Numbered from the stretch's first letter, positions 18,925 to 34,648 are shown. The stretch is DNA of 64,000 bases from Bacillota bacterium (GCA_049324875.1 JBMONC010000063.1:5012-69011), one strand, 5' to 3'. The notes: a model not told the origin generated them from the letters alone. Made by a program: numbers and translations.

Positions 18925-18999
18925 CTGGTGGAGTGCCTGTATTGGGCCTGGAGGTAGGTATTTGGGCTGATTTTGGCGGCTAGATGGCGAATGGCCGGG

Positions 19000-19061
19000 G
19001 CGATCTGTGAGCTTTTACTCGCCTGTTACTCGGTCTTCCGGGGAAAAATCTCACAGATCTC
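19000..19061. repeat. Palindromic extragenic element, copy 2 (~62 nt), overlapping the stop of the last tail-locus gene
   Basis: GCGATCTGTGAGCTTTTAC - loop - GAAAAATCTCACAGATCTC. The loop shares GGTCT(G/T)CCGGG with copy 1. The TGA stop of ORF 19060..20841 lies inside the right arm. Confidence 0.7.
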
Positions 19062-20841
19062 ATGCGCCGTGGCCCACTATCGGCTTGTACAGGGAGAGTT
19101 GGGCGGTCAGGGAGGCCCTGATAGCCGAGGTGAAGGTGACAACCAGCTTCTCATCGGAGGGCCGCGGAACCGGAAGGCCGGGGGTCTGCAGCGAGATCCG
19201 GTCCGGGGCTGGGAGCGGGAGGGCTTGGGGTGGCTGGGTTCCCAGGGCGTAGACCACCAGCTCGGCCCGCTCGGCCGGCAGGGGCTCCAGCTCCAGGTCG
19301 ATCAGCCAGAGGGCCGCCTCCCGGTTGAAGGCCTGGAGCTCCCAGCTCCCGGTCCGGTCCAGGTTGCGGGCCAGGGCCGCCCCGGCCCCCGCGCCGGCCG
19401 GGATCCGCAAGGCGCCCTCGGGCGGGACTCCCAGGCTCCGGTGGGCCAGGAGGCTCCCGCCCTCCCGGCCGGCGGCCACGACGAAGAGCGGGCGGGTCGC
19501 CTGGGCACCGTCCAGCTCCACCGGCTTCTCCAGGGCGGCCCGGAACCAGAAGCCGCCGCCGGCGGCCACGTAGGCGCCCGCATCGGCGGGGAGGGTGAGC
19601 TCGGCCTGGGCCAGGGGCTGGTCCGACGGAAAGGGAGGCTCGCCCGAGGCCTCGGCCAGCCGGATCTCCAGCCGCTCCTCCGCCCGGGGAAGGCCGGGGA
19701 GCATCAGCCAGACCGCCAGCAGCCGGCGCTTCTCGGCCGGGGCCTCACCGGCGGCCAGCCGGACGGCCTGCGCCACCTCCAGCCGCTCGGTGGCGCGCAC
19801 CGAGAAGGTCGGGTTGCCGGGGGCCAGCTCCAGCCGCCGTCCGCCCTCGATCCGGCCGGCGATCCGGAGCGAGGCGCTCGCCTCGGGCGCCTCGCCGAAG
19901 GGCCAGGGCAGCTCCAGCACGGCAGGGTTGAGGGAGTCCAGGGCGAGGCTCTGCTCGGGGCCGGCGTAGGAGCGGCCCCAGGCCCCGTCCAGGTCGACCT
20001 GGACGACGCCATCGGTCAGGGAGGTGATGCGGAGCTGCACCTCGGCCTCCCCGCCGCTGCTCCCGCGCCGCCAGGCGGCGTTGATCTGGCCGGTCAGGTC
20101 CCGGGAGGTGGCGGTTCCTTCCAGCGCCATCTCGGCGGGGAAGAGCTGGGCCGGGGTGTCATCGCCCAGGGCCAGCGCCACCCGGGAGGGCAGGCTGGGG
20201 GAGCTGAGCAGGATCTCGGCATCCTCATCCTCCAGCTTTACCTGGACCGCCTGGGTGAGCACCGCCTGCTCGTGGTAGCCGGAGTAGAGGTACTTCCCCC
20301 GGCCCCCGCGGAACCGGTTCAGGTGGAGGGGCTGCACATAGGTCCGGTAGTCGCCCTCCTTGTACCGGACCTCCACATCAGCGGCGGAGCGGGCCGTGCG
20401 GACCCCCACCGCCTCGATCCGGGCCGGGGCGGCCAGCAGGATCTCCTGCCAGGCCGGGTCGGCGCCGGAGACGGCCCGGGAGGAGCCCCACTCGGGCCGG
20501 GCCAGGTTCCGGATGAGGGAGCGGGCGGTCAGCCGGATCACAAAGGCGTGGAAGAGCAGGTCAGCCGGCCCCTGCAGCCGCACCGTGGAGGGGATGTTGG
20601 CCCGCAGGAGCAGGCTCGCCACACGGGTTTGGGGCTGGTCCAGCCGCAGCACGGCGGTGGAGGCCGGCGGGGCGGCCGGCTCCCACCACCAGCCGGCCCG
20701 GTAGTACTGGTAGATCTGCTCCACGTCCATGCCCGCCTCGATCTCGCCGGGGCGGATCTGCCGGATGCCCCGGCCCATCTCGGCCTCGTAGGCCTGCCCA
20801 CGGCCGGAGGCGGCCTTCCCATCGCCTGGGTGGATCAGCAC
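19060..20841 (-). CDS. Tail-locus distal protein, unknown function (593 aa)
   Basis: GTG 20841 with GGGAGGTGA ~9 nt upstream, 6 nt after the upstream stop. High GC3, no motif I recognise. It is the last gene of the co-directional cluster. Confidence 0.55.
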   Translation of the reverse strand: MLIHPGDGKAASGRGQAYEAEMGRGIRQIRPGEIEAGMDVEQIYQYYRAGWWWEPAAPPASTAVLRLDQPQTRVASLLLRANIPSTVRLQGPADLLFHAFVIRLTARSLIRNLARPEWGSSRAVSGADPAWQEILLAAPARIEAVGVRTARSAADVEVRYKEGDYRTYVQPLHLNRFRGGRGKYLYSGYHEQAVLTQAVQVKLEDEDAEILLSSPSLPSRVALALGDDTPAQLFPAEMALEGTATSRDLTGQINAAWRRGSSGGEAEVQLRITSLTDGVVQVDLDGAWGRSYAGPEQSLALDSLNPAVLELPWPFGEAPEASASLRIAGRIEGGRRLELAPGNPTFSVRATERLEVAQAVRLAAGEAPAEKRRLLAVWLMLPGLPRAEERLEIRLAEASGEPPFPSDQPLAQAELTLPADAGAYVAAGGGFWFRAALEKPVELDGAQATRPLFVVAAGREGGSLLAHRSLGVPPEGALRIPAGAGAGAALARNLDRTGSWELQAFNREAALWLIDLELEPLPAERAELVVYALGTQPPQALPLPAPDRISLQTPGLPVPRPSDEKLVVTFTSAIRASLTAQLSLYKPIVGHGA

Positions 20842-20847
20842 CTTCCC

Positions 20848-21978
20848 TCACCTCCCGCGGATCAGCAGCGCGCCCAGGGCGACCTGCTCCCGCCGCTCCG
20901 GCCGGAGGGCGGTGGCGACCGGCAGCGCCAGCATGGCCACCTGGGCGTGGATCTCGGGGGAGAGGATCAGCCGCGCCAGCACCTCCGACTCCTCCGGCGT
21001 GGGCGCCAGCAGGGCGCGGGCGGGCAGAGCAAAGGCGACCGGGTCCTGCCGGTAGAGCGGGGTCAGCTCCAGGGCGGTCTGCCGCGCCAGGGCGATGCTG
21101 GTCAGCTGCCCCAGGCGGCTCTCCTCGGCGGGGCCGGCCGTGCGCAGCTCGGCCGCGATCGCCGCGACCCGCGCCGGGCCCAGCCGGCCCAGATCGCCCA
21201 GGGTGGTGACCGCCAGCTCCCCCAGCTCGGCGATCACCGGTTCGCTCAGTCCATCGAACCAGCTGAGGGAGAGCGCCTCGGCCGGGGCGTAGACCGAGGA
21301 GGCCGCCACCTTCAGCGGCTTGTTTCGGACGGTCAGCTCGCCGCCGATCCGGAGGATCCGCCCGCCCTCCAGCGCCGCCGGGCTCAGCCGGAACTGGCAG
21401 GAGGCGGTCAGGGGGATCTCCCACTGCCGGTGGTTCTCCGGGTTCTCCCGGATCAGGGTCACCTCGCCCACCTCCCAGGCGGTCCAGGCCAGGGAGGCCT
21501 TGCGGGCGGCGTGGGCGGCGGTGGCGGCCCCGGCGGGCCGCGCCCCGATCTCCAGCTCAACCAGGGGGAGCACCGGGCCGTCGGCGGCGGGGCCGGGCTG
21601 CTCCTTCAGCAGCGCCAGCAGGGTGAGGGCGGCCACATCCACCCGGTGAAGCTCGCTGCCGGGCGGGGTCACCTCCAGGCTGCCCCCGGGGTAGGGGCCC
21701 GCCTGGCCCAGGAGCCGGAGGGCGACCAGGGCCTTCAGGTGGAGCCATCCCCCGTCCGGGGCGGGGCGGGGGCCCAGGTCCCGGTCCTCCGGCTGGGGCC
21801 TGAGCGACTGGACCTGAACCAGGGCGGCCACCTCGGTCGCCCCCAGGGGCGGCCCCGGCGGCAAGGTGAGCTGCCCGGGCACCGCCCGCACGTGGCCGAA
21901 GAGGTCGCTCTCGGCCGAGAGCGCCTGGATCTGCCGCTGGGCCCAGGCTGCCAGATGGGCCTCCATGGCCAGAATCAT
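20848..21978 (-). CDS. Tail-locus distal protein, unknown function (376 aa)
   Basis: ATG 21978 overlaps the upstream stop (ATGA, 21975-21978), implying translational coupling. No recognisable motif. Confidence 0.55.
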   Translation of the reverse strand: MILAMEAHLAAWAQRQIQALSAESDLFGHVRAVPGQLTLPPGPPLGATEVAALVQVQSLRPQPEDRDLGPRPAPDGGWLHLKALVALRLLGQAGPYPGGSLEVTPPGSELHRVDVAALTLLALLKEQPGPAADGPVLPLVELEIGARPAGAATAAHAARKASLAWTAWEVGEVTLIRENPENHRQWEIPLTASCQFRLSPAALEGGRILRIGGELTVRNKPLKVAASSVYAPAEALSLSWFDGLSEPVIAELGELAVTTLGDLGRLGPARVAAIAAELRTAGPAEESRLGQLTSIALARQTALELTPLYRQDPVAFALPARALLAPTPEESEVLARLILSPEIHAQVAMLALPVATALRPERREQVALGALLIRGR

Positions 21979-23612
21979 GACGCGACCAGCTCCCCGTGGA
22001 TGGCGATGCTGAAGGAGAGTTTGTTGACCAGGTCGCTCCCCCGGAAGAAGAGCAGGTCGACGTACTCAGCCCGGCGGTGGAGCACCTGGGGGATCAGCGG
22101 CGGCTGCGCCTCCTCCTCCTCGAAGAGGTAGTCGGGGGTGATGCTGACGGTGTACGAGGTGTCGGTGTAGGGGGTGGCGAAGCGCACCCGGACGAACTCC
22201 CGCCCCCGGTGGCGCATCCGGATCACCGACCGGATGTTCCGGCTGCCGCCGGTCCAGTAGCCGGCGGCCAGCAGGTGCGGGTTGTTGAGGAAGTCGTAGA
22301 TCTTGGGGATCTTCAGCAGGTAGTCGGGATGGAGCCGCTCGTCGTTCTCGATGCCGAAGTGGTAGAGGATCCGGCTGAGGACCAGCAGCTCTTCCTTGCT
22401 GGGGTTCTTGTGGGGGCTGAAGGTGACCGGCTGGCCGCTGTCGCTGAAGACGGCGTTGCCGCCCACGCCGGGCTGGTAGAGGGCGGTCCCCTCCCGGGCG
22501 CCCTTCCAGCCGATGCTGGCCGGGTCGACCAGCATCCCGATCCGGTGCCGCTCCTGCAGGTCGTCCGACGGGTGGGGGTTCAGGAAGAGTGAAGGGTCGA
22601 AGGGCAGCCGGTGGATGGGGGTGGTGCCGATGGGCTCCAGGATGATGGGGGCGGTCCGGATCGGCTGCCTGCGGATGGGGGCCGTCCGGATCGGCTCGGC
22701 GTAGATGGGCGCCGTCCGGATGGGGGCGGCCCGCTCAAAGGCCCCGATCAGGTTGAAGCTCTCGGTGCGCAGGGGGTTGTTCAGACGGGTCAGGTCGGCC
22801 CCGGCTGCGCCCAGCCGGCCCAGCAGCTCCTTCATCTCGGCGTCGGCCAGGCTCAGCCGCTCCCCGGAGGCCAGGGTCACCCCCCAGTGGCTCCCCTCGG
22901 AGCGGACCTCGGCCACCGCCCCGCCCAGCACCTCCCGGACCACCGGCTCGTTCTGCTTGAAGAAGCCGGCCAGGGAGACGGCCATCTCGGCCCGGGTGGC
23001 CAGGTCCAGGTTGGGGATGATCGGCCGGACGGCGTCGGGCGGCAGGATGGAGCGGATCGGCTGCCAGCCGCCGTCATCCCGCAGGCGGCGGATGGGCAGG
23101 TCGTGGACCCGCACCGGCGCCGCCTCGTCCAGGAGCCAGTCGAACCAGGGCCGGTCCGGGGTGGGATAGGCGATCAGCCCGTCCAGCCAGGTGCAGTAGC
23201 CGTAGGTGGTCGCCCCCTCCCGGGGCGCGTTCAGCAGGGCGAGCACCTCGTCGGCCAGCTTGGCCAGGGTGACCGCCTTCTCCTTGATCTGGGGCGTCCC
23301 CACCGCTTCATCAACCAGATGATTGCTGCCGATGCACTTCTCCTGGATCTCGCTGGCGCCCACCGCCCCGTTGTGGATGTCCCCCTTGGCCACGGCGTTG
23401 GGGCTGATGTGCTGGCCCCGCACGGCGTTGGGGGCGAGCCCCTGCCAGTCGATGGGCACCCCCCGGGGCGAGGCCTGATCGTTGCCGGTGTGGTCATGGG
23501 TCAGGAGCAGCAGGAGCAGCTCCTTCTGCATGGCGTTCAGCTCTTCAGCGGTCAGTGGCTGTCCGGGTTTGAAGGTGACCGGGATCCTGGCCCCGCCCGG
23601 AAGATCGCTCAT
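21975..23612 (-). CDS. Putative tail-fibre / receptor-binding-like protein (545 aa) with internal decapeptide repeats
   Basis: ATG 23612 with AAGGAGG 8 nt upstream, preferred over the track start 23672, which overlaps the upstream gene. The N-terminal region has phased I/V..NAV/GAV repeats (ISPNAVAKGDIHNGAVGASEIQEKCIGSNHLVDEAVGTPQIKEKAVTLAKLADEV), as seen in fibre shafts. Four repeats of xxPIRTAPIx. The assignment rests on position after gpJ/gpI only. Confidence 0.4.
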   Translation of the reverse strand: MSDLPGGARIPVTFKPGQPLTAEELNAMQKELLLLLLTHDHTGNDQASPRGVPIDWQGLAPNAVRGQHISPNAVAKGDIHNGAVGASEIQEKCIGSNHLVDEAVGTPQIKEKAVTLAKLADEVLALLNAPREGATTYGYCTWLDGLIAYPTPDRPWFDWLLDEAAPVRVHDLPIRRLRDDGGWQPIRSILPPDAVRPIIPNLDLATRAEMAVSLAGFFKQNEPVVREVLGGAVAEVRSEGSHWGVTLASGERLSLADAEMKELLGRLGAAGADLTRLNNPLRTESFNLIGAFERAAPIRTAPIYAEPIRTAPIRRQPIRTAPIILEPIGTTPIHRLPFDPSLFLNPHPSDDLQERHRIGMLVDPASIGWKGAREGTALYQPGVGGNAVFSDSGQPVTFSPHKNPSKEELLVLSRILYHFGIENDERLHPDYLLKIPKIYDFLNNPHLLAAGYWTGGSRNIRSVIRMRHRGREFVRVRFATPYTDTSYTVSITPDYLFEEEEAQPPLIPQVLHRRAEYVDLLFFRGSDLVNKLSFSIAIHGELVAS

Positions 23613-23646
23613 ACCCCATCCTCCTTCTTCGCCTCGGGAGGCTGTG

Positions 23647-24120
23647 CTACGCCCCCTGCGGGGCGAAGGCAAGCGTCCAGGTCAGGGTCAGGACCTCCTT
23701 GGCCCGCACGGTCTGGTGCGGCTTGACCAGGGCGCGGTTGTAGAGGGTGGTCACCTGGCTCTCGCCCAGGGTGCAGGTCAGCATCAGCCCGGCCTCCTTG
23801 ATCAGCCGCTCCCGCTCAGCGGGGGGGAAGGAGGCCCGGAGGGTGACCACGCCCTCCTTCACCCTCACCTCCGTGACCGGGACCGGCTCCAGGCCGTCGG
23901 GGTCGTAGAGCTTGGTCAGGTCGGGGACGGTCGGCTCGGCAGAGACCCCGGCGGCGATGGCGAAGCTGGGGCCGGTGGCCGCCCCGCTGAGCAGCTGGGC
24001 CACCATCTGCCGCCCCCCGTCGACCACCGTGTTCCTCCCCTCCGACCGCACCACCGTGCCGTCGGATCGGGTCACCTCCAGCCGGACAACTCCGTGGATG
24101 GCCAGCGATTCATGCCCCAT
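23647..24120 (-). CDS. Small tail-locus protein, unknown function (157 aa)
   Basis: ATG 24120 with GAGGAGGAG 7 nt upstream, 3 nt after the upstream stop. Beta-rich sequence (HGVVRLEVTRSDGTVVRSEGRNTVVDGG...). No family assigned. Confidence 0.55.
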   Translation of the reverse strand: MGHESLAIHGVVRLEVTRSDGTVVRSEGRNTVVDGGRQMVAQLLSGAATGPSFAIAAGVSAEPTVPDLTKLYDPDGLEPVPVTEVRVKEGVVTLRASFPPAERERLIKEAGLMLTCTLGESQVTTLYNRALVKPHQTVRAKEVLTLTWTLAFAPQGA

Positions 24121-24123
24121 GGG

Positions 24124-25608
24124 CTACTCCTCCTCTGCGGTTACGGTGATGGCGACCGAATCGGTCAGCAGGGTGGCCTCGGCGAAGGCCTCCTTCCGGT
24201 GGACGGTCCGGACCTCCGCCGCCAGGTCGGCGGTGGCGGGGGAGACCTCCCAGAGGGAGAGCTCCGGCTGCCCGCCCTCCCCCTCCTCCGGCTCCTCCAT
24301 CAGGGCGGTGGCGGAGGGGTCCAGGTAGAGGACGCCCGCCAGCTTCAGCCGGTGGATCTGCTCCCGGAGCCAGTCGGCCCGGTGCTTCATCTTGCCGGAT
24401 GGGACCGGGCCGTCGCAGAGCTGCTCCTCCGGCACCAGCACGGTGAAGGTGGCCAGCCGGCGGCCGATCCAGTGGAAGCGGATGGAGGCCGGGCCGGTCT
24501 GCACCGTGGCGGGCAGGGGGCGAAGGTCGCTCAGCTCCAGCGCCTCGTCGAGGGCGGGGAGCAGTCCCTGGGGGTTGGCCCCCACCAGCAGCCGCCAGCG
24601 GGAGGTGCCGAGCCCCAGCAGCGGGGGCCAGGGGATATTGGCGATGGGCACCGGGTCGGCGGAGCCGGGGGGGCCGGGCACCTCCGGGATGTCGGGCCCG
24701 GTGCGGATCTGCTTGCTCCACCGGACCAGGTGGAAGGGGCGGGCGGCGCTCTGCCGGGGCGGCGGGTCGGTCAGCCGCCAGGCCCGGTTGTCGCCGGCGA
24801 GGCCGCCGGTGCCGTAGAGCAGGTCGGGGGCGGGAGCGCCCCCCATGGTGACCGGCCCCTGCAGGGTGGCCGGGCCGTCCAGGTCTTGGATCTGATGGTG
24901 CTGCAGGTCGACCCGGAGCGTGGCGCCGGGCGGGATGAACCGGTTGACCAGCACCAGCCGGCGCAGGTCGCGCTGCAGCAGGATCGGCAGGGTGACCGGG
25001 CGCTCCCCGGCGGTGATCTCCACCACCGGCTCCGGGTAGGTGGGCGGGGTGAAGAAGTCGCCGGGGTCGGCGTAGGTGGCGTTCTCCACCTCCCACTTGT
25101 AGTCCGAGGCGGGGGTGATCACCACCTCCTGCCGGACGGGCGGCAGCTCCACCAGCCGGGCCTCGAAGCGCTGGGCCGGATCGGCCCGGCGGGCGTAGTG
25201 GCCGGATGTGGTAAACCGGTCGTTCAGAGGACCACCTCCCTGCGGCGCTCGCTCCGGCAGGACGATCTCGTCCAGCCGCGCGTCGGTGGCGGCGGCCACC
25301 ACCTCCAGCAGGCGGGGGGCGGTGGCGGCTCCGGCGAGGTAGATGCGGGCCATCTGCCCCACCCGGTGGCGAAACTCGCCCAGGTCCTCCTCGGGCCAGG
25401 GGACCAGGGCGAAGAGCGCCGCCAGCCGCTCGGCATCGTCGAGGTCGGCCAGGTGGTCGATAAACCGGGACTGCAGCAGCTGTCTGCCGTGCCGGTCCAG
25501 CACGGCAAGGGCGTCTCCCAGCGCCCCGGTCAGGCTGCGGATCACCGTCTGGGAGCCGGCCCGCCGGTAGGCGTCGGGGAGGAAGCGGAAGACCCGGTCG
25601 GCGCTCAT
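24124..25608 (-). CDS. Baseplate wedge protein, P2 gpI / Mu gp48-like N-terminal domain
   Basis: The N-terminus RFLPDAYRR...L..AL...L......L.....D.L...DAERLAALFALVPWPEEDLGEFRHRV matches the Tail_P2_I-type pattern. ATGA overlap with the baseplate J gene (25605-25608). Confidence 0.6.
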   Translation of the reverse strand: MSADRVFRFLPDAYRRAGSQTVIRSLTGALGDALAVLDRHGRQLLQSRFIDHLADLDDAERLAALFALVPWPEEDLGEFRHRVGQMARIYLAGAATAPRLLEVVAAATDARLDEIVLPERAPQGGGPLNDRFTTSGHYARRADPAQRFEARLVELPPVRQEVVITPASDYKWEVENATYADPGDFFTPPTYPEPVVEITAGERPVTLPILLQRDLRRLVLVNRFIPPGATLRVDLQHHQIQDLDGPATLQGPVTMGGAPAPDLLYGTGGLAGDNRAWRLTDPPPRQSAARPFHLVRWSKQIRTGPDIPEVPGPPGSADPVPIANIPWPPLLGLGTSRWRLLVGANPQGLLPALDEALELSDLRPLPATVQTGPASIRFHWIGRRLATFTVLVPEEQLCDGPVPSGKMKHRADWLREQIHRLKLAGVLYLDPSATALMEEPEEGEGGQPELSLWEVSPATADLAAEVRTVHRKEAFAEATLLTDSVAITVTAEEE

Positions 25609-27104
25609 GGCAGCTCCCCCCAGACCGGTCCGTCGGGATGGGGTTCCAGCCGGTCGGATGGACCGAGGTTGTAGGTCGGGAAGGCGGGGCTGAGGAAGGC
25701 CTCGCCGCCGCCCAGCAGGTCGATCACCTGGACCGCCACGGTGGCGCCCTCCAGGATGGCGCCGCCCGGCGCCCCCTTCGCAGCGGCCACCACCTCGGCA
25801 AAGGAGATGGCGGCAGGGCCGGCAAGATCGTTCTTGCCAGCCAGCACCTCCTCCACCGCCCGGGCGATGGCCGCCCGCGTGGTCGGGTCGGGCTCGACGG
25901 AGGCCCAGAGCCGGAGCTGGACGGTGGCCTCGCCGTCGAAGAGGATGGTGACGGCGGGGCCGTCCTCGGGCACCGTCAGCCGCTCCAGGGGCGACAGCGG
26001 GCCGGAGGGGATCTCCCGGGTGAGGCTCATCGGGCTGCCGTCCAGGGTGGCGGTCCCCTCGAGGATGTCCCGGACGCCGTCCAGGGAGAGCACCTTGGCC
26101 TGGACCGGGTTCCAGAGCAGCTTCTCGCCCACCTTGAGGCCGACGATCGCTCCCTGGACCGTCTGCTCGATGGCGCGGCGGAGCGCCTGTTTCTTGCCGG
26201 CGGAGAGGTTGGGGGTGCTGGGGAGCACCCTCAGCTGGATGGTGACGGTCCGGGTGGTGATCCCCCGGATGGAGACGAGGATGCCGGGCCCCTTGGTCCG
26301 GTTGATGGCGTCCCGGATCTCGCTGTAGGCGTTGGGGGCGGCCAGGTCGCCGTCCACCACCACCTCCAGCTGGCCGGGCTGCAGCCTGGGCAGCCCGTCC
26401 GAGTCGGCGTCCCGGAAGACCACCCCGGCGGCGTGGCCGGTGGCCAGGATCGCACGCTCCATCGCCTTGAGGGTGCCGCCGCCGGCGGCGTCGATCAGCC
26501 CCTTCACCCGCCTGCGCAGGTCGTCGTCGCTCTCCCGGTAGCCACGCTGGACGGTGGGCCGGGGGATGTCGACCCCGCCGATGCCCGCCAGCGGCACATC
26601 CTGCACCACCTGCCAGTCCAGCTCATCGGGCAGCAGGTGGGCGGTGGGCTCCTCCCCCTCGGCGGGGTCGGCCACCACGGGGACGGTGACGCTGTTCTGC
26701 CCCGGCTCCAGCTCCGCCTCGCGGCTGGTCCGGTAGTAGGCCAGGCCGCTGGGCTGCAGCTGGACCTTCAGCCGGGTCCCCTCGGGGATCACCACCCGGC
26801 CGGCCACCCGGGAGTCGCGGGTGAAGACCGCGTCGCCCACCACCTGCAGCCCGTCGATGCGGCGCTGTCCCAGGAGGGCGACCAGGAAGTCCAGCGACTC
26901 GCCGGTCGCGGTGTCGATGTAGCCCATCTCGTAGATGTGGGAGAGGCGGGCGTGCGCCTCGGCCAGCTCCCGCCCGAAGGCCTCCACCAGGGTGCGGACG
27001 ACGCTGCCGGGGTTGACATCGGTCAGCCGCCCCTCTTCCCGGAGCTGGGTCAGCATGCGGGTCACGATCTCTTCGTACCGGTACTTGCCTCCCGGTGGCT
27101 GCAT
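25605..27104 (-). CDS. Baseplate J-like protein (P2 gpJ / T4 gp6 / Mu gp47 family)
   Basis: YEEIVTRMLTQL...DVNPGSVVRTLVEAFGRELAEAHARLSHIYEMGYIDTATGESLDFLVALLGQRR is the typical Baseplate_J N-terminal pattern. 499 aa, following the gp25-like gene. Confidence 0.75.
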   Translation of the reverse strand: MQPPGGKYRYEEIVTRMLTQLREEGRLTDVNPGSVVRTLVEAFGRELAEAHARLSHIYEMGYIDTATGESLDFLVALLGQRRIDGLQVVGDAVFTRDSRVAGRVVIPEGTRLKVQLQPSGLAYYRTSREAELEPGQNSVTVPVVADPAEGEEPTAHLLPDELDWQVVQDVPLAGIGGVDIPRPTVQRGYRESDDDLRRRVKGLIDAAGGGTLKAMERAILATGHAAGVVFRDADSDGLPRLQPGQLEVVVDGDLAAPNAYSEIRDAINRTKGPGILVSIRGITTRTVTIQLRVLPSTPNLSAGKKQALRRAIEQTVQGAIVGLKVGEKLLWNPVQAKVLSLDGVRDILEGTATLDGSPMSLTREIPSGPLSPLERLTVPEDGPAVTILFDGEATVQLRLWASVEPDPTTRAAIARAVEEVLAGKNDLAGPAAISFAEVVAAAKGAPGGAILEGATVAVQVIDLLGGGEAFLSPAFPTYNLGPSDRLEPHPDGPVWGELP

Positions 27105-27107
27105 AGG

Positions 27108-27943: not shown

Positions 27944-27957
27944 CGGCAGCACCTCCT

Positions 27958-28656
27958 TCAGTTGATGTTGACCACCGAGCCCTTCAGCTCGGCGGTGGCG
28001 CCGGCGTTCAGCTTCAGGTTGGCCCCCGCCTTGATCTCCAGGCTCCCCTGGGCCTCGATGGTCAGGTTGCCGTTCCCCTGCAGGGCGATGTCCCCCCCGT
28101 CCTTGAGGGTGAGGCTGGAGCCGGAGGTGGTGAGGGTCGCCTCGCCGGCCTCGGCGTCGATGGTCAGGGTCAGACTCCCCACCGCCGCCTCCACCCGCTT
28201 GTCGGTCACCGTCAGGGTGAGGTCGGAGGGGAGCTTCAGGGTGAAGGAGCGGCTGCCGTTCCGGCCGCCCTTCAGCGCCAGCTCCAGCCGGTCCGACTCG
28301 CCGGCGTCCGGCGGGAGGTGGGTGACGATCTCGCCCGGGCCGTAGGGGGGTGGGCGGAGCTGGTCGCTGTAGAACCGACCGGCGATCACCGGCTGGTCAG
28401 GGTCGCCGCCCACGAAGTGGACCAGGACCAGGTCGCCCTTGGCCGGCGGGGCGGCTGTGCCCAGGTGATCGGTGGCGAGGGGCACACCGGTCAGGAGCAG
28501 GTCCCGGCCCCGGAGGCGCACATCGCAGCCGTAGTTCTCGTTGTCAGAGGGGTCGGAATGGGCCGCTGCCGCCTCCACCACCCCGATCTGGCTGGGGATG
28601 TGGTGGGCCAGCTCGGCCCGGATCAGCTCCCGGAGCAGGGCGACGATGTCGGACAC
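27958..28656 (-). CDS. Central spike protein (gpV / Mu gp45 / VgrG-like OB-fold plus beta-helix)
   Basis: N-terminal Phage_base_V-like region (GVVEAAAAHSD...YGCDVRLRGRDLLLTGVPLATDHLG...GDLVLVHFVGGD.DQPVIAGRFY). The C-terminus has beta-helix repeats (LTLTVTD..VEAAVGSLTLTIDAEAGEATLTTSGSSLTLKDGGDIALQGNGNLTIEAQGSLEIKAGANLKLNAGA). Confidence 0.75.
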   Translation of the reverse strand: MSDIVALLRELIRAELAHHIPSQIGVVEAAAAHSDPSDNENYGCDVRLRGRDLLLTGVPLATDHLGTAAPPAKGDLVLVHFVGGDPDQPVIAGRFYSDQLRPPPYGPGEIVTHLPPDAGESDRLELALKGGRNGSRSFTLKLPSDLTLTVTDKRVEAAVGSLTLTIDAEAGEATLTTSGSSLTLKDGGDIALQGNGNLTIEAQGSLEIKAGANLKLNAGATAELKGSVVNIN

Positions 28657-28660
28657 GCAC

Positions 28661-29617
28661 TCACACCCCGATTCGGTTCAGCTCCAGGCGGGTGACGAGC
28701 CCGGCCTGGGCGTCCCAGACGATGGTGATCCCGGCCAGCCGCACCGGCTCGGGGGCCGGGCTGAAACCGGTCAGCAGGAGCGCCTCGCCCAGGTCGGCCG
28801 GCGGGAGGCCCGCCAGCACCAGGTGCCGGCGGTGGCTGCTCTCCTTGGCCCGCAGGGCCAGGGTGGCGGCGGCTCTGGTCACATCCGCCGCCGTCTTCAG
28901 GCCGGGCATGTGGCGGCTGTGGCTGCCGTCGCCGGCGGCGACGGCCTCCAGGGACTGGAGCAGCCAGCTCTCCGCCCCCGGACCCCTGGCGCCCATGGCG
29001 CCATCCCCCGTCAGCCGGGTTCCGGGGGGATCGTCGGGCCCATCCTCGGCCTGGTAGTCGATCACCGGATCCTCCCGGCGGAGGGTGGCCACCGGGGTGG
29101 GGAGCGGACTCTCCACCCGGAGCTGGCCCGCCGTGTCGGTGCGGACCAGCAGGCCGGAGATGGCGGCCAGCCGGAGGATGTGGTCCATGCCGCTGGGGCC
29201 GAAGTGGAGGGCGTAGGCGGGCAGGGTGGCGCCGGGGGGCTCCACCACCGCCGGGACCCCGGCCTCCTGGCAGAGCTCGCTGATCAGCTTGGCCGCCGTG
29301 GTGGAGCGGACCGCCCTGTCGGTGTGGAGCCGGGCCAGGGGGCCGGTGGCCTCCTCGATCAGCAGGCGGGTTCCCCAGGAGCCCACCTGCCGCCGGAGCA
29401 GCCGGCCGGTGAAGAGCGGCCGGGCCTGGCCGGAGCCGGAAGCGCCGCTGATCTGCAGCTTCGCCCCCGCCTCCGGGGGCTCCACCGCCGGGGAGAGCAC
29501 CACCTCGGCCTGCCCCACCGGCCACGCCAGCGAGCGGCGCAGCCGGAGGGCGGCCAGCGGGATCGGGCCGGCGGCCGGGGGCGCCCCGACCGGCCGGAGG
29601 TGAATGGTGGGTCGCAT
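28661..29617 (-). CDS. Baseplate hub protein (P2 gpD / Mu gp44 / XkdQ-like)
   Basis: 318 aa, immediately upstream of the spike gene. Size, position and pattern (..LFTGRLLRR......TRLLIEEATGPLARL....RS.....AAKLISELCQEAGV...) fit late-control-D/hub proteins. ATG 29617 has a GGGAGGAGGGGG SD. Confidence 0.55.
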   Translation of the reverse strand: MRPTIHLRPVGAPPAAGPIPLAALRLRRSLAWPVGQAEVVLSPAVEPPEAGAKLQISGASGSGQARPLFTGRLLRRQVGSWGTRLLIEEATGPLARLHTDRAVRSTTAAKLISELCQEAGVPAVVEPPGATLPAYALHFGPSGMDHILRLAAISGLLVRTDTAGQLRVESPLPTPVATLRREDPVIDYQAEDGPDDPPGTRLTGDGAMGARGPGAESWLLQSLEAVAAGDGSHSRHMPGLKTAADVTRAAATLALRAKESSHRRHLVLAGLPPADLGEALLLTGFSPAPEPVRLAGITIVWDAQAGLVTRLELNRIGV

Positions 29618-29642
29618 GGCACCCCCTCCTCCCGGCCCAGGG

Positions 29643-30242
29643 TTATGCGGTCACGGTCAGCGCCTCACCCAGCAGGTCGATGCAGCCGGAGGCGTAGGCG
29701 ACGAAGTCGGCGATGGCGGCCCCGGCCTGCGCCACGTTGACGATGTCGTTCAGCGGCCCCATGATCGCCTCGGTGTCGAAGCTGGAGCCGGCCGCCTCGT
29801 TGATCACCCCGGCGATGGCCGGGAAGAGGCCGTACTTGCCGTCAACGGGCTGGTAGTTGTAGCCGGGGCTGGTGGCGTGGGGCGAGTTGAGGGCGACGAA
29901 GGCCTGGTACCGGGTCCCCACCTCATCGCCCAGCTCGTTGGCGGTGTTCTCGATCTCCTTGACCACATCCTGGAGCCCCTTGGTCATCGCCTCGATGGCG
30001 GAGTTGATGGCCGAACTGCCGGGCAGGCCGCCCAGGAGCTCGTTGATCTTGGTCTTCAGGCCGGGGTCGGTGGTGAGCGACTCCATATAGTCGGTGATGG
30101 AGTCCTCGGCGCTCTCGCCCCAGATCTTGTCGGGGTCGAAGGCGCCGCCGGTGATCACCTCGCAGAGCTCGCGCAGGGCCGCATCCACATCCTTCAGCTT
30201 CTGGGGCAGGGCGTTGTACTTGGCCGTCCGGTTCGTCGCCAC
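29643..30242 (-). CDS. Tail-locus protein of unknown function (199 aa, predicted helical)
   Basis: GTG 30242 with AAAGGAGGAG 8 nt upstream. High GC3, no signal peptide and no LysM motif. It occupies the slot between the tube-initiator-like and hub genes. Confidence 0.55.
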   Translation of the reverse strand: MATNRTAKYNALPQKLKDVDAALRELCEVITGGAFDPDKIWGESAEDSITDYMESLTTDPGLKTKINELLGGLPGSSAINSAIEAMTKGLQDVVKEIENTANELGDEVGTRYQAFVALNSPHATSPGYNYQPVDGKYGLFPAIAGVINEAAGSSFDTEAIMGPLNDIVNVAQAGAAIADFVAYASGCIDLLGEALTVTA

Positions 30243-30261
30243 GGAATACTCCTCCTTTGCA

Positions 30262-30891
30262 TTAGCCGCCCCAGGCGGTGATCGCCCGGCCGGCCTTGGA
30301 CAGGATCTCCTCGATCACACCCAACCCTTCCACCGCCTCCATCACCGTCTCCACCATCTCCACGGCGTCCTCGGCGGCGGCGAGCGCCTCGTCCAGGGCA
30401 GCCTTGGCGGCGGCGGCCTCGGCCAGGGCGCCGGCGGCGGCATCCACCGCGGCGCCTGCGGCCTCATCGACGGCGGAGGCGATCTCGCCGAGAACGCCGG
30501 CGTCGAAGCCGCCGGCGGTGGGCGGGGGCGGCGGCACATAGCGGACCAGTTCCATCTGGTACTCGTAGTAGTCAAGCCGGCCGGGCGGCTGGTAGACCTG
30601 AAGGCGGGCCACCATCACCTGCTCGATATTGGCGGCGACGGCGGCGCTGGCGGCGAAGTCCAGGGGCTCGCCCCGCTGCATCGCCTGCCGCAGCGCCTCC
30701 AGGCGGTTGCCCGCCTCGCTGCCCAGGGCCACCCCCGCCAGCCAGATGCGGGCGCCGGCCTGGCCCAGGTCCTGGACCAGGTCCCCCTCCGCACCGGGCC
30801 ACGGGTGGATCGCCAGCCGGCGGGACTCATCGATCGCCAGCCCGGTCACCCGGTCCAGCTCCAGATCGCCGAGGATCACCGCTTCTGCCAC
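30262..30891 (-). CDS. Tube-initiator-like protein (Mu gp43 'DNA circulation' N-terminal-domain-like)
   Basis: The N-terminal ~125 aa (RLAIHPWPGAEGDLVQDLGQAGARIWLAGVALGSEAGNRLEALRQAMQRGEPLDF...) resemble the DNA_circ_N pattern. The C-terminal half is Ala-rich and low-complexity. Positioned between the tape-measure slot and the hub. Confidence 0.45.
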   Translation of the reverse strand: MAEAVILGDLELDRVTGLAIDESRRLAIHPWPGAEGDLVQDLGQAGARIWLAGVALGSEAGNRLEALRQAMQRGEPLDFAASAAVAANIEQVMVARLQVYQPPGRLDYYEYQMELVRYVPPPPPTAGGFDAGVLGEIASAVDEAAGAAVDAAAGALAEAAAAKAALDEALAAAEDAVEMVETVMEAVEGLGVIEEILSKAGRAITAWGG

Positions 30892-30895
30892 CGAA

Positions 30896-31957
30896 TTACC
30901 CCCCCTTCAGGTCCAGGCCGTGCCGGAGGGCGTCCTCCCGCAGGATCCGGGCCAGCTGCTCCCGGAGCTGCTCCCGGGCGGCGAGGCTGGGGGCCGGGCC
31001 CGGGGCCCGGCTGGCCGGGCGGAGATCGGTGGGAGGGTCTGGTGGGAGTTGCCCCAGGCTCCATGCGGGCCCCATCGCGGCGGCCACCTGTCTCAGCGCC
31101 GGGATCTCGACCCCCGGGGGCAGGGCAATGCCGGGAGGAGCGCTCCCGCCGCCGGTGGCTGGGGCCTCGGCGCGGGGGTCATGGCGAGAGGGCGCCGGCG
31201 CGGGGGTCGGGGGGCGTGGGGCGGTCAGCCGGGCCGCCAGGGCGGTGCGCCGCTGCTCCCGGGCGGCGAGGGCGGCCCTGAGGGCACTCCCTTCCACGGG
31301 TGTGGAAGGCTCATGCAAGGGATGCGTCAGGGGCGTGCCAGGATCATGCTGCCCCTCCGTTCCCCCGGTCGAGTCCCGCATCTGCCGCCCGGATGCTTCA
31401 TGCGGTGATATGGCGGGCGTATGCATTGGCTGTGCGGAATCATCCGCTGGCCGTGCGGGCTGCTCGAGGGATGGGTTCATGGCTCGTGTCCGCCTCATGG
31501 CAGGCCTCATGGCAGGCCGATCTGGCGAGGCCGGAGGCCGGTTGGAGGCCATTCCTTCCCCGTTGCCGGCGGGGGTCCCCCGCGCCGGTGGGTCGGCCCC
31601 ATCGCGTGACCCGGGTGTTCCAGGCCGGTGCCAGGGTTGTGGCAGCCCCATTTCAGGCGCATGCCAGGGTGATACCAGTCCCATTTCAGGCGCATGCCAG
31701 GCTTGGGCAAGCCCCATTCCAGGCAGGTCCGAGGGTGACGCCAGGCCTGTTCCGGACACCTGCCGGGGATGTGACAGGCGGGTTCCGCCTGCCTGCCAGG
31801 GGGGCGGGGGCCTCCCCGCGGGCGCATGGGGGCCTCCCGCCAGACCCAGCGCCCGGCAGACCCGCTCCCGCCGACCCCCCCGTGCCGAAGAGCGGGCCAG
31901 TACCAGGGCCAGAAAGCCCAGCAGACCCGGGCTGAAGCTGGGGAAGCGGCTAGTCAT
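30896..31957 (-). CDS. Pro/Ala/Arg-rich low-complexity protein in the tape-measure position
   Basis: The only through-going ORF in operon orientation. ATG 31957 overlaps the upstream stop (ATGACTAG), and the stop lies 4 nt before the next start. N-terminal hydrophobic segment (GLLGFLALVLA). 33-bp tandem repeats encode P(G/E)MGLxxPWHA. The C-terminal ~100 aa have normal high GC3 and end in a helical LREQLARILREDALRHGLDLKGG. Confidence 0.4.
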   Translation of the reverse strand: MTSRFPSFSPGLLGFLALVLARSSARGGRRERVCRALGLAGGPHAPAGRPPPPWQAGGTRLSHPRQVSGTGLASPSDLPGMGLAQAWHAPEMGLVSPWHAPEMGLPQPWHRPGTPGSRDGADPPARGTPAGNGEGMASNRPPASPDRPAMRPAMRRTRAMNPSLEQPARPADDSAQPMHTPAISPHEASGRQMRDSTGGTEGQHDPGTPLTHPLHEPSTPVEGSALRAALAAREQRRTALAARLTAPRPPTPAPAPSRHDPRAEAPATGGGSAPPGIALPPGVEIPALRQVAAAMGPAWSLGQLPPDPPTDLRPASRAPGPAPSLAAREQLREQLARILREDALRHGLDLKGG

Positions 31958-32714
31958 CCTCCACAATGATCCGGTTCACCCCCTCCCCCTGCTGGGCAGC
32001 GGCTGCCTGCGCCGGCCCCCGGTCGACCAGCCGAAGGGCTGCCAGCAGCCGCTCGGCCAGGCGGGCGTCCATCCGCTCCACCTGCTCGGGCCGCCAGCCA
32101 AAGTGCTGGCAGAGGTAGAGCAGCGCCAGATCCGGGTGGTCATACCCCTGGCGGACCGAGGCCTCCAGGATCGCCGCCTGCTCCTCCGCCACCCCGTTGA
32201 GCCGGTCCAGCGCCTGGATCACCACCTCGCCCAGCGCCACCGGCCACTCGGCGATGGCCTGGGGGCCGATGTGCTCCCCCTCCTCGGTGGTGACGCAGGA
32301 CTGGAGCATCTGCATCTCGTAGGCCGCCAGGTCGACGGAGACCCGCCCGTCCACCAGCCGGAGCGACCGGCGGAGCGCCTCGTTCCGCTCGCCGAAGGTC
32401 CACGGGTGGAGGCGAAGCTCGACTCCCGTCCCCCTGACCCGCCATACCTCCAGCCCTTCGAGCACCTCAAGCCGCAGGGCGAGCCGCTCCTCCTCCACCG
32501 CCCGCAGGGCGGCGGCCATCAGCTGATCGCCCACCCCCACCGGGAGGGCCCGGATCGTCTCCCGGCTCTCTCCCTCCAGGCAGGCCAGCAGACACTCCTC
32601 CAGCAGGCGAGCGCTGTCGCCCGCCCCCCGCTCCAGCGCCTGGGTCCAGCGCCACCAGCGGGGGGCTTGCACCGTGTACTGCCGGTCTCCGATCGACAAG
32701 GTCCGGGCGCCCAT
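31950..32714 (-). CDS. Putative tail assembly chaperone (positional call)
   Basis: 254 aa, starting 3 nt after the tube gene stop and overlapping the next gene by 8 nt. It occupies the gpE/gpG-like chaperone slot between the tube and tape-measure positions. No motif recognised. Confidence 0.35.
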   Translation of the reverse strand: MGARTLSIGDRQYTVQAPRWWRWTQALERGAGDSARLLEECLLACLEGESRETIRALPVGVGDQLMAAALRAVEEERLALRLEVLEGLEVWRVRGTGVELRLHPWTFGERNEALRRSLRLVDGRVSVDLAAYEMQMLQSCVTTEEGEHIGPQAIAEWPVALGEVVIQALDRLNGVAEEQAAILEASVRQGYDHPDLALLYLCQHFGWRPEQVERMDARLAERLLAALRLVDRGPAQAAAAQQGEGVNRIIVEDD

Positions 32715-32717
32715 GGG

Positions 32718-33104
32718 CTAGCGCTCCCGGGTGGCCGAGAAGTGGTAGATCACCTCGACCACCCCGCCCGCCGCCAGCCCGAAGGACTTGCCGTGCAGCT
32801 GGCACTCGTCCAGGGTGACCTCCTTGGCCACCTCGCCCTCCGCCGTGACGTGCTTGAGCGAGGCGAAGATCTGGAAGCTCTCCTTGGACTGGAGCAGCCG
32901 CTCCAGCTCGTCGCTGGCAGAGCGGATCCGGAGCGTCCCGGTGATCCGGGTCATGCCGTAGACCACCCCCACCCGCTCATCCGTCCCGATGGCGGCGATC
33001 TCGGTCTGGGGCTTCACCGTCTGGTAGGTGATCTCCTGAAGCCCGGCCAGCGCCGTGCCGTTGACCAGCACGTTCGACCGGTTCGCCGAAAGAATCGTGG
33101 CCAC
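32718..33104 (-). CDS. Tail tube protein (XkdM / myophage tube-like)
   Basis: 128 aa, GTG 33104 with GGAAGGAGG 7 nt upstream, 18 nt after the sheath stop. Size, position and beta-rich sequence (VLVNGTALAGLQEITYQTVKPQTEIAAIG...ITGTLRI...) fit a tube protein. It lacks the ..NITLKRG..W.. signature seen in the gene at 16631. Confidence 0.65.
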   Translation of the reverse strand: MATILSANRSNVLVNGTALAGLQEITYQTVKPQTEIAAIGTDERVGVVYGMTRITGTLRIRSASDELERLLQSKESFQIFASLKHVTAEGEVAKEVTLDECQLHGKSFGLAAGGVVEVIYHFSATRER

Positions 33105-33122
33105 GCGACTGCCTCCTTCCGG

Positions 33123-34541
33123 TTAGAACGCCTGGACCTTGATGGTGGCGTAGATGTAGTCGATCGCCCGGACCGGCCGCACCGCTGTGTCGATCCGGAC
33201 CACCCCCGCCGCGAAGTCATCGGGGGTCGACTCCACCGAAACGGCGAAGGCCGGGGACTGCCCGTCGGTGCTGGGCACGATCGCCCCCTCCCGCTCCATC
33301 CGGGTGAAGGCCTCGGTGATCCGCTGCTTCAGGGCGAGCCGGTGCGCCTCGGTGTTCAACAGCCCGATGAAGTCCTGGGCGATGTTCTGCACGTGCCGGA
33401 CCGCCCGGTCGGCCACCCGGGTGACGTTGATCTGCCCGGTGTCGGTGGTGATCCCCTTGACCACCGAGATCCCCTTGCGGGGCACCTCATCGACGGCGCA
33501 GACCCCGGCCTTGATCAGCGCCTCCAGCTGCGGGTCGGTGAAGTCGAAGGAGAGGCTGGAGACCCCCGGGAGGCTCTTGAAGGTGGGCGACTCGAAGTAG
33601 CGTTGCCCGGCGATCATGCCGATCACGGCGCCCATGTACCCGTGGGGGGCGACCAGGACAAACCGCTCGCTCACCAGCCGGGAGGCCATCCGGGTGGTGA
33701 CCTCCATGTTGGGCCGGCCGTCCTCGGTGGGGATGGTCTGGCCGAAGCCCATCCGGTTCCGGGCGATCCGCGACATGCGCTCGCAGTGGCTGATGATCTC
33801 GGCGCAGATCTGGGTGGCGTTGGCCTCGCCGTACCGGTGGCTGGCGGCCACCATGTCCACGTCCGGGAAGGTCTCCAGCCGGGCGAGCGCCGCCGCAAAG
33901 GCCTCGGGCATGGCGTCCTGCCCGCCGGTCAGCGGCTTGGGCAGGGCGTCGGGGTTGGTGTTGTCGGGCAGCACCTGCGCATCCGGTGCGGCAGCCGTCT
34001 TCAGCGTCGCCCGCACGAAGGAGGACTCGGCGCTGACGGCGGCCACGAAGTAGCGGGCGTGGTCCCGCCTGCTGGAGAGGTTCCGGATCGTCTCCACCGG
34101 CTGGTCCGTCCCCTTCCGGAAGACCTGGACCTCCACCGCCTCCTGACCGGCAGCGACGCCGGTCCGGGTGACCAGCCGGACCGAGAGGTCGTTGCCCCAG
34201 GCCCCGCCGGCCTTCGCCCGGAACTCCAGCTTCGCGGGGGAGCCGTTCACCTGCACGCTCTCCTCCACCGCGGCGGCGGTCATCAGGTCGGGCGGGATGT
34301 TGACCACCACCACCTGGTTCAACCCCGCCGCGAAGGCCTGCCGAACCTCTGGCAGTGACATGACCGAGGCCGGCCCATAGGTCTCCCGGAACTCCTGCAA
34401 CGACCCGAGGGCCTGGAGCGGCTTGGACGAGCGGTCCACCTCGGTGGGGCCGACAATCCCCAGCACCCCGGTCGCGCCCAGCGGTCTGGGCACCAGTTCA
34501 CGAATCACGCGGATCTCCACGCCCGGAATGATCAGACCCAT
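33123..34541 (-). CDS. Contractile tail sheath protein
   Basis: The N-terminus MGLIIPGVEIRVIRELVP.PLGATGVLGIVGPT and the C-terminal block GVCAVDEVPRKGISVVKGITTD...INVTRVADRAVRHVQNIAQDFIGLLNT...VRIDTAVRPVRAIDYIYATIKVQ match sheath N- and C-terminal domains. ATG 34541 (AAAGGAG 8 nt upstream) is preferred to GTG 34547. Confidence 0.85.
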   Translation of the reverse strand: MGLIIPGVEIRVIRELVPRPLGATGVLGIVGPTEVDRSSKPLQALGSLQEFRETYGPASVMSLPEVRQAFAAGLNQVVVVNIPPDLMTAAAVEESVQVNGSPAKLEFRAKAGGAWGNDLSVRLVTRTGVAAGQEAVEVQVFRKGTDQPVETIRNLSSRRDHARYFVAAVSAESSFVRATLKTAAAPDAQVLPDNTNPDALPKPLTGGQDAMPEAFAAALARLETFPDVDMVAASHRYGEANATQICAEIISHCERMSRIARNRMGFGQTIPTEDGRPNMEVTTRMASRLVSERFVLVAPHGYMGAVIGMIAGQRYFESPTFKSLPGVSSLSFDFTDPQLEALIKAGVCAVDEVPRKGISVVKGITTDTGQINVTRVADRAVRHVQNIAQDFIGLLNTEAHRLALKQRITEAFTRMEREGAIVPSTDGQSPAFAVSVESTPDDFAAGVVRIDTAVRPVRAIDYIYATIKVQAF

Positions 34542-34619
34542 ACCCACACTCCTTTGCCCCCGAAATCATCCGCCACGCGGATAAGTAGTATGACTAAAAA
34601 TAATATTCGGTCTATTAAG

Positions 34620-34648
34620 AGCATAGGTGGAGCCCTGTACAGTGTCAA
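34620..34648 (-). promoter_or_regulatory. Sigma-A-type promoter of the contractile-tail locus
   Basis: The minus strand reads TTGACA (34648-34643), a 17-nt spacer, then TATGCT (34625-34620), about 75 nt upstream of the sheath start. It sits in an AT-rich gap between a terminator and the sheath gene. Confidence 0.55.

Follow-up and report, generated by a model that had tools for sequence, protein, structure and literature searches.

The question addressed here is what kind of system is encoded by a cluster of phage-tail-like genes, devoid of head genes, that is located in a 64,000-nucleotide stretch of DNA from a Bacillota bacterium (JBMONC010000063.1:5012-69011, assembly GCA_049324875.1), the whole of which is called the window below. 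The cluster, hereafter the cassette, consists of 16 co-directional open reading frames (ORFs) on the minus strand that run from 34541 down to 19060, about 15.5 kb, and its gene set is that of a complete contractile tail. The locus very probably encodes a contractile particle, and the explanation favoured is a single-use, headless particle that would be assembled in the cytoplasm, released by lysis of the producer and aimed at other cells by means of its fibre, to which a probability of about 0.6 is assigned. The cassette reads as an uncatalogued, ancient lineage similar to contractile injection systems (CIS) and tailocins and provided with a Mu-type baseplate, although the extracellular CIS (eCIS) that eCIStem lists for Cohnella may be of this type.

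Gene content of the cassette

ORF and coding analyses have borne out the arrangement described in the initial annotation, with 16 minus-strand genes separated by gaps of 3-34 nt or overlapping by 4-8 nt when the best-supported start codons are used (overlaps ATGACTAG at 31950-31957 and ATGA at 25605-25608 and 21975-21978). Because no intergenic gap exceeds 34 nt, there is no room for hidden ORFs in the cassette. The G+C content at third codon positions (GC3) was 0.91-0.96 in 15 of the ORFs, the exception being the Pro-rich ORF at 30896-31957, with a weak GC3. Searches for capsid, portal, terminase, integrase, repressor, holin and endolysin families gave no match anywhere in the window, as had been anticipated. 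None of the 16 cassette proteins showed a Walker A motif, a predicted transmembrane segment or a match to AAA Pfam or LysM families, and no signal peptide is encoded in the cassette. The description of the cluster as lacking AAA+ ATPase, LysM and lysis genes in it or near it is in agreement with these Pfam and Walker A scans, and the non-phage flanks and the lack of head genes uphold its classification as a stand-alone headless contractile tail locus and not a prophage. The Pfam and PHROG assignments, collected in Table 1 together with the transcription signals, also sustain the Mu/PBSX-like gene order proposed at first and the presence of a separate PAAR protein.

Table 1. Features of the cassette, listed from the promoter to the 3' end
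Feature	Size (aa)	Position	Strand	Evidence
Sigma-A-like promoter, TTGACA-N17-TATGCT		34620-34648	-	Promoter scan; conservation in relatives
Tail sheath	472	33123-34541	-	Pfam Phage_sheath_1 (7.8e-8) and Phage_sheath_1C
Putative tail tube	128	32718-33104	-	Position, size, weak Pfam match to Phage_tube FII (E 0.009)
p254, predicted tail assembly chaperone-like protein	254	31950-32714	-	AlphaFold2 (AF2) model and Foldseek
Pro-rich protein in the tape-measure slot	353	30896-31957	-	Only open frame in the interval
Mu gp43-like tube initiator/hub cap	209	30262-30891	-	DNA_circ_N (3.4e-6, above cut-off); phrog_184 baseplate hub (1.5e-9)
p199, acidic lineage-specific protein	199	29643-30242	-	Conserved in Bacillota and Rhodobacterales loci
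Baseplate hub, gpD/Mu gp44-like	318	28661-29617	-	Gp44-like_2nd (2.2e-4, below cut-off); phrog_177 baseplate hub (3.3e-4); position
Central spike, gpV/gp45-like	232	27958-28656	-	Pfam Phage_base_V (1.8e-6, above cut-off)
PAAR spike tip	132	27554-27952	-	Pfam PAAR_motif (1.2e-11)
gp25/gpW/Mu gp46-like sheath initiator	149	27108-27557	-	GP46, GPW_gp25 and Sheath_initiator, all below cut-offs
Baseplate wedge, J/gp6/TssF-like	499	25605-27104	-	Pfam Baseplate_J (1.8e-6, above cut-off)
p494, probable gpI/Mu gp48/gp7-like wedge	494	24124-25608	-	Archaeal homologues, hhalign, position
p157, small baseplate-associated protein	157	23647-24120	-	PHROG phrog_5417 (function unknown), 5e-10, full length
p565, tail-fibre-like protein	545 (from ATG 23612)	21975-23612	-	phrog_892 tail fibre (6.6e-10, residues 79-146)
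p376, predicted tail terminator/cap (gene 15 of 16)	376	20848-21978	-	AF2 and Foldseek
p593, lineage-specific protein	593	19060-20841	-	Conserved position in relatives
Two REP-like hairpins 3' of the last gene		18858-19065	-	Folding; possibly transcript end or stabiliser

Assignment of the proteins

The sheath has 571 homologues, and the 100% match among them carries the annotation phage tail sheath protein. Comparison of its profile with the PDB retrieved CIS sheaths only, the best being that of Halogeometricum Cis2 (9ezm, 1.9e-15, over part of the protein), followed by the PVC sheath (9qgl) and Afp3 (6rao), with no phage or pyocin sheath at E < 1. An exact look-up of this gene's product with a GTG start was empty; the true start is ATG 34541. 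The tube gene is kept in all related loci; its profile found no solved tube in the PDB, and the PF06841 (Phage_T4_gp19) match is absent from its product.

The p254 model (predicted local distance difference test, pLDDT, 92.7) has a predicted tail assembly chaperone fold, since the Foldseek search against BFVD retrieved tail assembly chaperones, including those of Bacillus phage 019DV002 (9e-6) and Mu (FS-gp41, 0.018); against the PDB it gave noise (gyrase) except for a weak match to the HK97 chaperone. Pfam and PDB sequence searches were without match for p254, which is resembled by only 64 clusters out of 1.84 billion representatives. Its residues ~200-216 include a conserved motif, LCxxxGWxPEQV, that resembles one transcription activator-like (TAL) effector repeat (LCQAHGLTPEQV), probably by coincidence, and because this motif matches every repeat, a high profile score against TAL effector structures was obtained. 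A relationship with TAL effectors was rejected as chance, the score coming from a single 17-residue motif with per-repeat E values of 40-80.

The protein in the tape-measure slot had been described as odd and Pro-rich, and it does contain 16.6% Pro, with an atypical codon bias and a hypervariable middle whose length and sequence both vary freely among relatives. When the relatives were compared, conservation was confined to a short motif at the N-terminus and to the last ~30 aa (LRExLAxILRxDALRHGLxLK). Its position and the adjoining chaperone gene make this protein, by analogy, a candidate length ruler, and a conserved tape-measure C-terminus would suit docking in the hub. In-frame tandem repeats are found in the variable middle of its gene (31629-31724, 33 nt x2.9, encoding 11-residue APEMGL..PWH units) and in the fibre gene (22644-22721, 30 nt x2.6, PIRTAPI-like units), which suggests length variation by slippage.

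Among the baseplate proteins, the gp25-like protein was linked to the sheath C-terminus by hhalign (57% probability), and the best matches of the J protein among phages showed 21-31% identity and belonged mostly to haloarchaeal myoviruses. The p494 protein had no direct Pfam match, and the member-by-member scan of its alignment against Pfam was inconsistent. Archaeal homologues of its N-terminus match Tail_P2_I (1.7e-4) and Phage_Mu_Gp48, and this N-terminus resembles that of J (hhalign, 50% probability), in the same way as the N-termini of gp6 and gp7 resemble each other, so that p494 is, by sequence comparison, probably the gpI/gp48/gp7 wedge partner of J. In Myxococcus loci p157 sits between gp25 and J. 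Profile searches against PDB sequences yielded nothing usable for p376, p593, p199, p494, p157 and the tube, and the 10 cassette proteins searched against NCBIfam gave no match.

The terminator that the initial annotation had failed to find is predicted to be p376, the AF2 model of which (pLDDT 78) has a tail-terminator fold. The top 50 Foldseek matches in the PDB were almost all tail terminators, with E values from 5e-4 to 4e-2, including a Salmonella prophage protein, the neck proteins of Pa193 and E217, the pyocin R2 collar, T5 p142, lambda gpU, T4 gp15, the Mu terminator (9khy), the monocin cap and the PVC cap (9qgn, E 0.034, the DUF4255 sequence match being absent in the cassette). The terminator match spans the N-terminal ~200 residues, and residues 245-376 constitute an extra helical domain. 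Afp16 likewise sits at the 3' end of the Afp locus, like the p376 gene in the cassette. The fibre-like protein has a tail-fibre-like match in phage S-TIP37, and a receptor-binding role is favoured for it because the highest ratio of nonsynonymous to synonymous substitution rates (dN/dS) of the cassette, 0.54, and the internal repeats are as expected for such proteins.

Four ORFs had been considered unassignable, and this now holds fully for p593 alone, since the fibre and the terminator have been assigned and p157 belongs to a PHROG family. The profile searches on the unassigned ORFs recovered no ATPase, LysM or lysis protein. No significant match of p199, and no match of p593, was found in Pfam, PHROG, NCBIfam, PDB sequences or the 50,697 phage records, and when the members of both family alignments were scanned one by one against Pfam, no match was consistent. 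The weak PDB profile matches of p199 are all helical-bundle or coiled-coil proteins, and a role as plug or lumen cargo is a guess. The idea that p199 is the true tape measure was disfavoured, as 199 aa would give a tail of ~30 nm and the gene lies after the tube initiator. The position of p593 is shared by the complete Bacillota loci, with a partial match in an Acidobacteriota contig and a weak one in Roseobacter; its dN/dS was 0.44 against the closest relative, and it is possibly a peripheral structural protein or a conserved payload.

Distribution and conservation of the cassette

A set of 54 loci was obtained by look-ups around p494 and sheath homologues and by a J-profile scan, taking one genome per species, and the gene content of the related loci was scored with hidden Markov models of the 16 cassette families. 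All 16 genes were found in the same order in Cohnella pontilimi (locus L001), a metagenome-assembled genome (MAG) of Symbiobacteriaceae (L002, the closest relative), a JGI metagenome contig (L003) and Roseobacter sp. N2S (L014), in the last of which genes 15 and 16 are weak (~24 bits each). This recurrence, with non-phage flanks, is the outcome of the synteny comparison that had been suggested as a check. The L002 cassette occupies the same chromosomal site, adjoining hgmA, and the sites in L001, L003 and L014 are unrelated. Partial copies with matching order, limited by contig ends, were found in a second Symbiobacteriaceae MAG (15 of the 16 genes), in an Acidobacteriota MAG (a 9.4-kb contig, from the spike to p593) and in the Rhodobacterales Rhodobaculum, Amylibacter and Aliishimia. 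Myxococcus, Corallococcus and Pyxidicoccus carry versions that are reduced or rearranged, and several archaeal groups have modules extending from the sheath to J. More distant loci, sharing baseplate genes alone within the fetched stretch, occur in Chloroflexia, cyanobacteria and Hahella.

The flanks of the examined loci differ by host and are never phage-like, and directly upstream of the sheath there is in every one of them a promoter with unrelated metabolic genes. No head genes were detected in the flanks of the related loci (up to 10 kb on each side of the matched gene), and no conserved membrane-protein neighbour is shared across the loci. The cassettes of L001-L003, L005 and L006 contain no AAA+ ATPase, and neither a lysis cassette nor a regulator was found in the cassette or the flanks of the window locus, L001-L003 or L014. 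The dN/dS values against L002 ranged from 0.09 to 0.54 across the 16 genes, all with intact reading frames, and show that the cassette is under purifying selection. The least constrained genes were those of the fibre, the Pro-rich protein (0.53) and p593.

Several differences among the relatives concern the spike-PAAR-gp25 junction. An Amidase_2 (peptidoglycan amidase) gene lies between the spike and PAAR genes of L003 (6470-7120), and it hints at cell-wall targets; in L002, non-coding tandem arrays flank the PAAR gene at 6731-6958 and 7426-7595 (21 nt x10.9 and 53 nt x3.2). This junction, variable in relatives, may be a cargo or insertion hot-spot. In Myxococcus fulvus (L004, 724-3534) a 936-aa eCIS_core (DUF4157) protein is encoded upstream of the related sheath gene, at a distance of ~6.5 kb; since DUF4157 marks eCIS toxins, the protein might be a cargo of the Myxococcus version. 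Genes for catabolism of aromatic compounds are found beside the cassette in three unrelated hosts, which may be due to chance: HPPD, HgmA and FAH in the window (34774-38650), Rieske and amidohydrolase genes in Cohnella (L001, 16815-18352), and IclR, MarR, CHMI and aldehyde dehydrogenase genes in Roseobacter (L014, 1183-2037 and 18457-21008).

Comparison with phages and known contractile systems

The sheath, p157, p199 and p593 had no match by tblastn in the 50,697 phage records, and in IMG/VR only 2 of 2.9 million contigs carry a relative, with 38-40% identity and the same tail module. Because phage relatives are absent or distant, a recent prophage is ruled out and an old, independently maintained module is argued for.

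One of the closest known layouts is that of the Mu-type tail (gp39-gp48), which shares with the cassette the sheath, the tube, the chaperone, the tape-measure slot, gp43, gp44, gp45/gpV, gp46/gp25, gp47/J, a gp48/I-like protein and the fibre, as well as the separate hub and spike genes and the lack of a LysM protein. The gp43-gp48 order expected of a Mu-like tail is present, the gp44, gp46 and gp48 assignments being weak or transitive. In contrast to Mu, in which the terminator gene lies upstream of the sheath, the terminator of the cassette is encoded at the 3' end and has the extra helical domain; the cassette adds a separate PAAR protein, its ruler candidate is Pro-rich rather than helical, it includes p199 and p593 (without family) and p157 (of an uncharacterised phage family), and it has no lysis cassette or regulator. 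The upstream terminator and the head-joining genes within a phage genome that characterise Mu-like phages are likewise absent. R-type tailocins of Pseudomonas are Mu-derived, with a tail like that of Mu, and the cassette coincides with them in being a headless contractile tail module with fibres, but it has neither linked lysis genes and regulators nor a recognisable recent parent phage. The PBSX/diffocin-type defective prophages or tailocins of Bacillota are like the cassette in that the host is Gram-positive, the baseplate genes are similarly ordered and the particle is headless or defective; they carry LysM (XkdP), holin, endolysin and regulator genes and are restricted to narrow host groups, whereas the cassette has none of these genes and spans several phyla.

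The eCIS core has been defined by eight components (Chen et al. 2019, PMC6899500), and the cassette is without four of the eight, namely a tube of the Afp1/5 T4_gp19 type, the LysM protein (Afp7), the fused VgrG (Afp8) and the AAA+ ATPase (Afp15), which upholds the view that it does not fit this definition. The Afp7 slot is occupied by the DNA_circ_N (Mu gp43-like) protein, and in place of the fused gp27-gp5 protein Afp8 the hub (318 aa) and the spike (232 aa) are separate genes. An Afp2/3/4-type sheath, Afp9 (gp25, below cut-offs) and Afp11 (Baseplate_J, above cut-off) are present. Like the Afp/PVC systems, which are catalogued in dbeCIS and eCIStem, the cassette is chromosomal, has no head genes, contains genes for sheath, gp25, Baseplate_J and PAAR and encodes near its 3' end a protein with a predicted terminator fold, but their tape-measure slot comes after the fibres and that of the cassette after the tube, as in phages. 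No DUF4255 or DUF4157 match was found in the cassette. The M. xanthus eCIS in eCIStem (MXAN_4492-4510) is a classical one with a different architecture, and the possibility that the Myxococcus relative was already listed there was rejected, as MXAN_4492-4510 is laid out differently. With respect to type VI secretion systems (T6SS, types i-iii), the cassette has a single 472-aa sheath and not the two-protein TssBC, and it has no transmembrane proteins (TssJLM) and no ATPase (ClpV).

Literature searches found no published description of this cassette. A one-sentence speculation on a translocation system that is unknown and phage-like, based on Firmicutes PAAR_H2 genes adjoining Phage_GPD with no eCIS/T6SS genes, has been published (PMC8651086). 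Both cases have a PAAR gene beside a gpD-type hub in Firmicutes with no eCIS/T6SS core nearby, and that system may be the present cassette family, the paper describing no locus. The claim that the cassette fits no class stands in that neither the eCIS nor the tailocin definition applies to it, and it has been weakened to the view that the cassette is a lineage of its own, not catalogued, within a known kind of system, because its structural set is that of a complete, fairly conventional tail.

Proposed mechanism and alternative explanations

The assembly steps can be proposed by analogy with the tails of Mu, P2 and pyocins. The centrepiece would consist of the gp44-like hub, the gpV-like spike and the PAAR tip, and the wedges of gp25, J and p494, decorated by p157 and the p565 fibre. 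The gp43-like protein would seed the tube, p254 would hold the Pro-rich ruler, the conserved C-terminus of which would dock in the hub, and the 128-aa tube and 472-aa sheath proteins would polymerise around this ruler. The distal end would be capped by the p376 terminator. Because no ATPase, membrane anchor or signal peptide is encoded, the particle would be built in the cytoplasm and fire once. Its action would most likely take place outside the producer, after cell lysis, when the fast-evolving fibre would bind the target and the PAAR-tipped tube would be driven through the envelope, as in an R-type tailocin or an eCIS.

Several points weigh against this explanation. No lysis cassette or regulator is linked to the cassette in any locus examined, so that release is unexplained, and no toxin or payload gene is recognisable in the cassette. 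In every member the particle is predicted from the genes. The putative tube is identified by position, size and a weak Pfam match, and the predicted fold of p376 comes with modest Foldseek E-values (5e-4 and weaker), the case for it relying on the consistency of the hit list. Two conserved proteins, p199 and p593, match no family giving a role, and the Pro-rich protein is unlike the known alpha-helical tape measures and has a weak codon bias.

The main rival is an unreleased cytoplasmic CIS that fires inside the producer, in regulated cell death or stress-linked lysis, as in Streptomyces coelicolor. The lack of lysis gene, signal peptide and membrane protein would suit such a system, which is known in a Gram-positive host (PMC10066040). 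It is nevertheless considered unlikely, given that the fibre-like gene has been retained and is the fastest-evolving one and that, with the PAAR tip, it points to an external target, that the cassette is also kept in Rhodobacterales and Acidobacteriota, and that the eCIS core of the Streptomyces systems (ATPase, DUF4255, T4_gp19 tube) is absent from it. The profile match of the sheath to Halogeometricum Cis2, the closest solved sheath, which operates as a membrane-bound T6SS (PMC11566945), could suggest instead a cell-anchored, T6SS-like system that, as the haloarchaeal clade IIa CIS do, fires outwards when contact is made. This is very improbable: that match is remote and covers part of the protein, transmembrane segments are absent from all 16 proteins, an ATPase for recycling is lacking and no membrane-protein neighbour is conserved across loci.

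The two remaining alternatives relate the cassette to phage particles. A module supplying tails alone to heads that are encoded in another part of the genome, as a split gene transfer agent (GTA)-like system or a satellite, could find a joining surface in the extra C-terminal helical domain of p376, and split GTA loci are known in Rhodobacterales; we give it little credence, as there are no head genes in the window or the examined flanks of the relatives, and systems without heads typically have a PAAR tip and a terminator gene placed at the 3' end. All recognisable genes are of phage-tail type, as would also be the case in a decaying prophage remnant without present function, but this explanation is close to refuted by the 16 intact frames with dN/dS < 1, the gene order kept across phyla, the absence of head, integrase and repressor remnants from the window and the lack of a close phage relative in the phage records and IMG/VR. 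Beyond the released headless particle, the cassette could tentatively be taken as the type example of a separate, ancient CIS branch, a wider proposal that has the odds against it. Such a branch would be ATPase-free and lysis-free, would apparently have been exchanged among Bacillota, Acidobacteriota and Alphaproteobacteria, would have simpler relatives in Myxococcota and archaea, and would possess a disordered Pro-rich ruler, p199, p157 and p593 and a mode of release or action unlike those of tailocins, eCIS and T6SS.

Relevance of the cassette

Contractile injection systems are studied for their part in warfare among microbes and as programmable tools for protein delivery. To be retained in the published eCIS screens, a locus must combine an Afp1/5-type tube with Afp11 or have 10 or more Afp-like core genes, and the lineage is probably missing from the eCIS catalogues because such filters would probably skip the cassette. 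If particles are made, the cassette would constitute a compact, ~15.5 kb, ATPase-independent system present in Gram-positive and Gram-negative hosts, would provide a test of tail-length setting by a proline-rich, apparently non-helical protein, and would pose the problem of the exit of a headless tail from the cell without a linked lysis cassette. These questions are directly testable, since Cohnella pontilimi CAU 1483, a cultured isolate, carries the cassette.

Transcription signals and chromosomal setting

The promoter proposed to precede the sheath gene was recovered in the scan as one of two promoter-like sites in 18 kb (0.6 expected), and it is followed by an AT-rich 5' untranslated region of ~70 nt and a GGAG ribosome-binding site. 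The -35 box, the ribosome-binding site and the start codon are kept in L002, and the last two also in Cohnella. Upstream, the flavin-reductase gene ends in an intrinsic terminator at 34748-34729. The paired palindromic elements described after the last gene correspond to hairpins at 18858-18930 (dG -37.6 kcal/mol, z -7.2) and 18995-19065, related to each other and of ~60 nt each, with arms AGATCTGTGAG...CTCACAGATCT; they look like repetitive extragenic palindromic (REP) or miniature inverted-repeat transposable (MITE)-type elements, or a T-less terminator. An Rfam search of 16-36 kb gave no match.

The window has ~70% G+C. The sheath and the 494-aa protein share 100% identity with proteins from a Bacillota MAG, and their next relatives are found in Symbiobacteriaceae MAGs and Cohnella; the host is a Symbiobacteriaceae-like bacterium. 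The upstream neighbours encode flavin reductase, homogentisate dioxygenase, fumarylacetoacetate hydrolase and HPPD, and those downstream a lipoprotein (18104-18712), a ROK regulator, a lyase and an ABC sugar transporter, with LeuRS, penicillin-binding proteins, type IV pilus genes and chemoreceptors farther out in the window. The borders had been placed at the terminator of the catabolic operon and the lipoprotein gene, and they need one correction, since the gene at 16631-17965 on the plus strand, beyond the lipoprotein gene, had gone unmentioned. It encodes a secreted 444-aa protein with a Sec signal, two Phage_T4_gp19 domains (E 1.2e-26), which is the eCIS-type tube domain, and a Cys-rich linker, and it is convergent with the cassette, with one lipoprotein gene between them. 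An orthologue lies near the cassette in L002 (17577-18872), and none was present in the ~5 kb past the cassette that were fetched for Cohnella and for L003. The export of a tube-domain protein is odd in itself. Unrelated to the cassette, the minus-strand gene at 6031-9996 encodes a 1321-aa protein with an unusual signalling architecture, in which BTAD, GGDEF and STAND-type AAA_16 NTPase domains occur together with TPR repeats.

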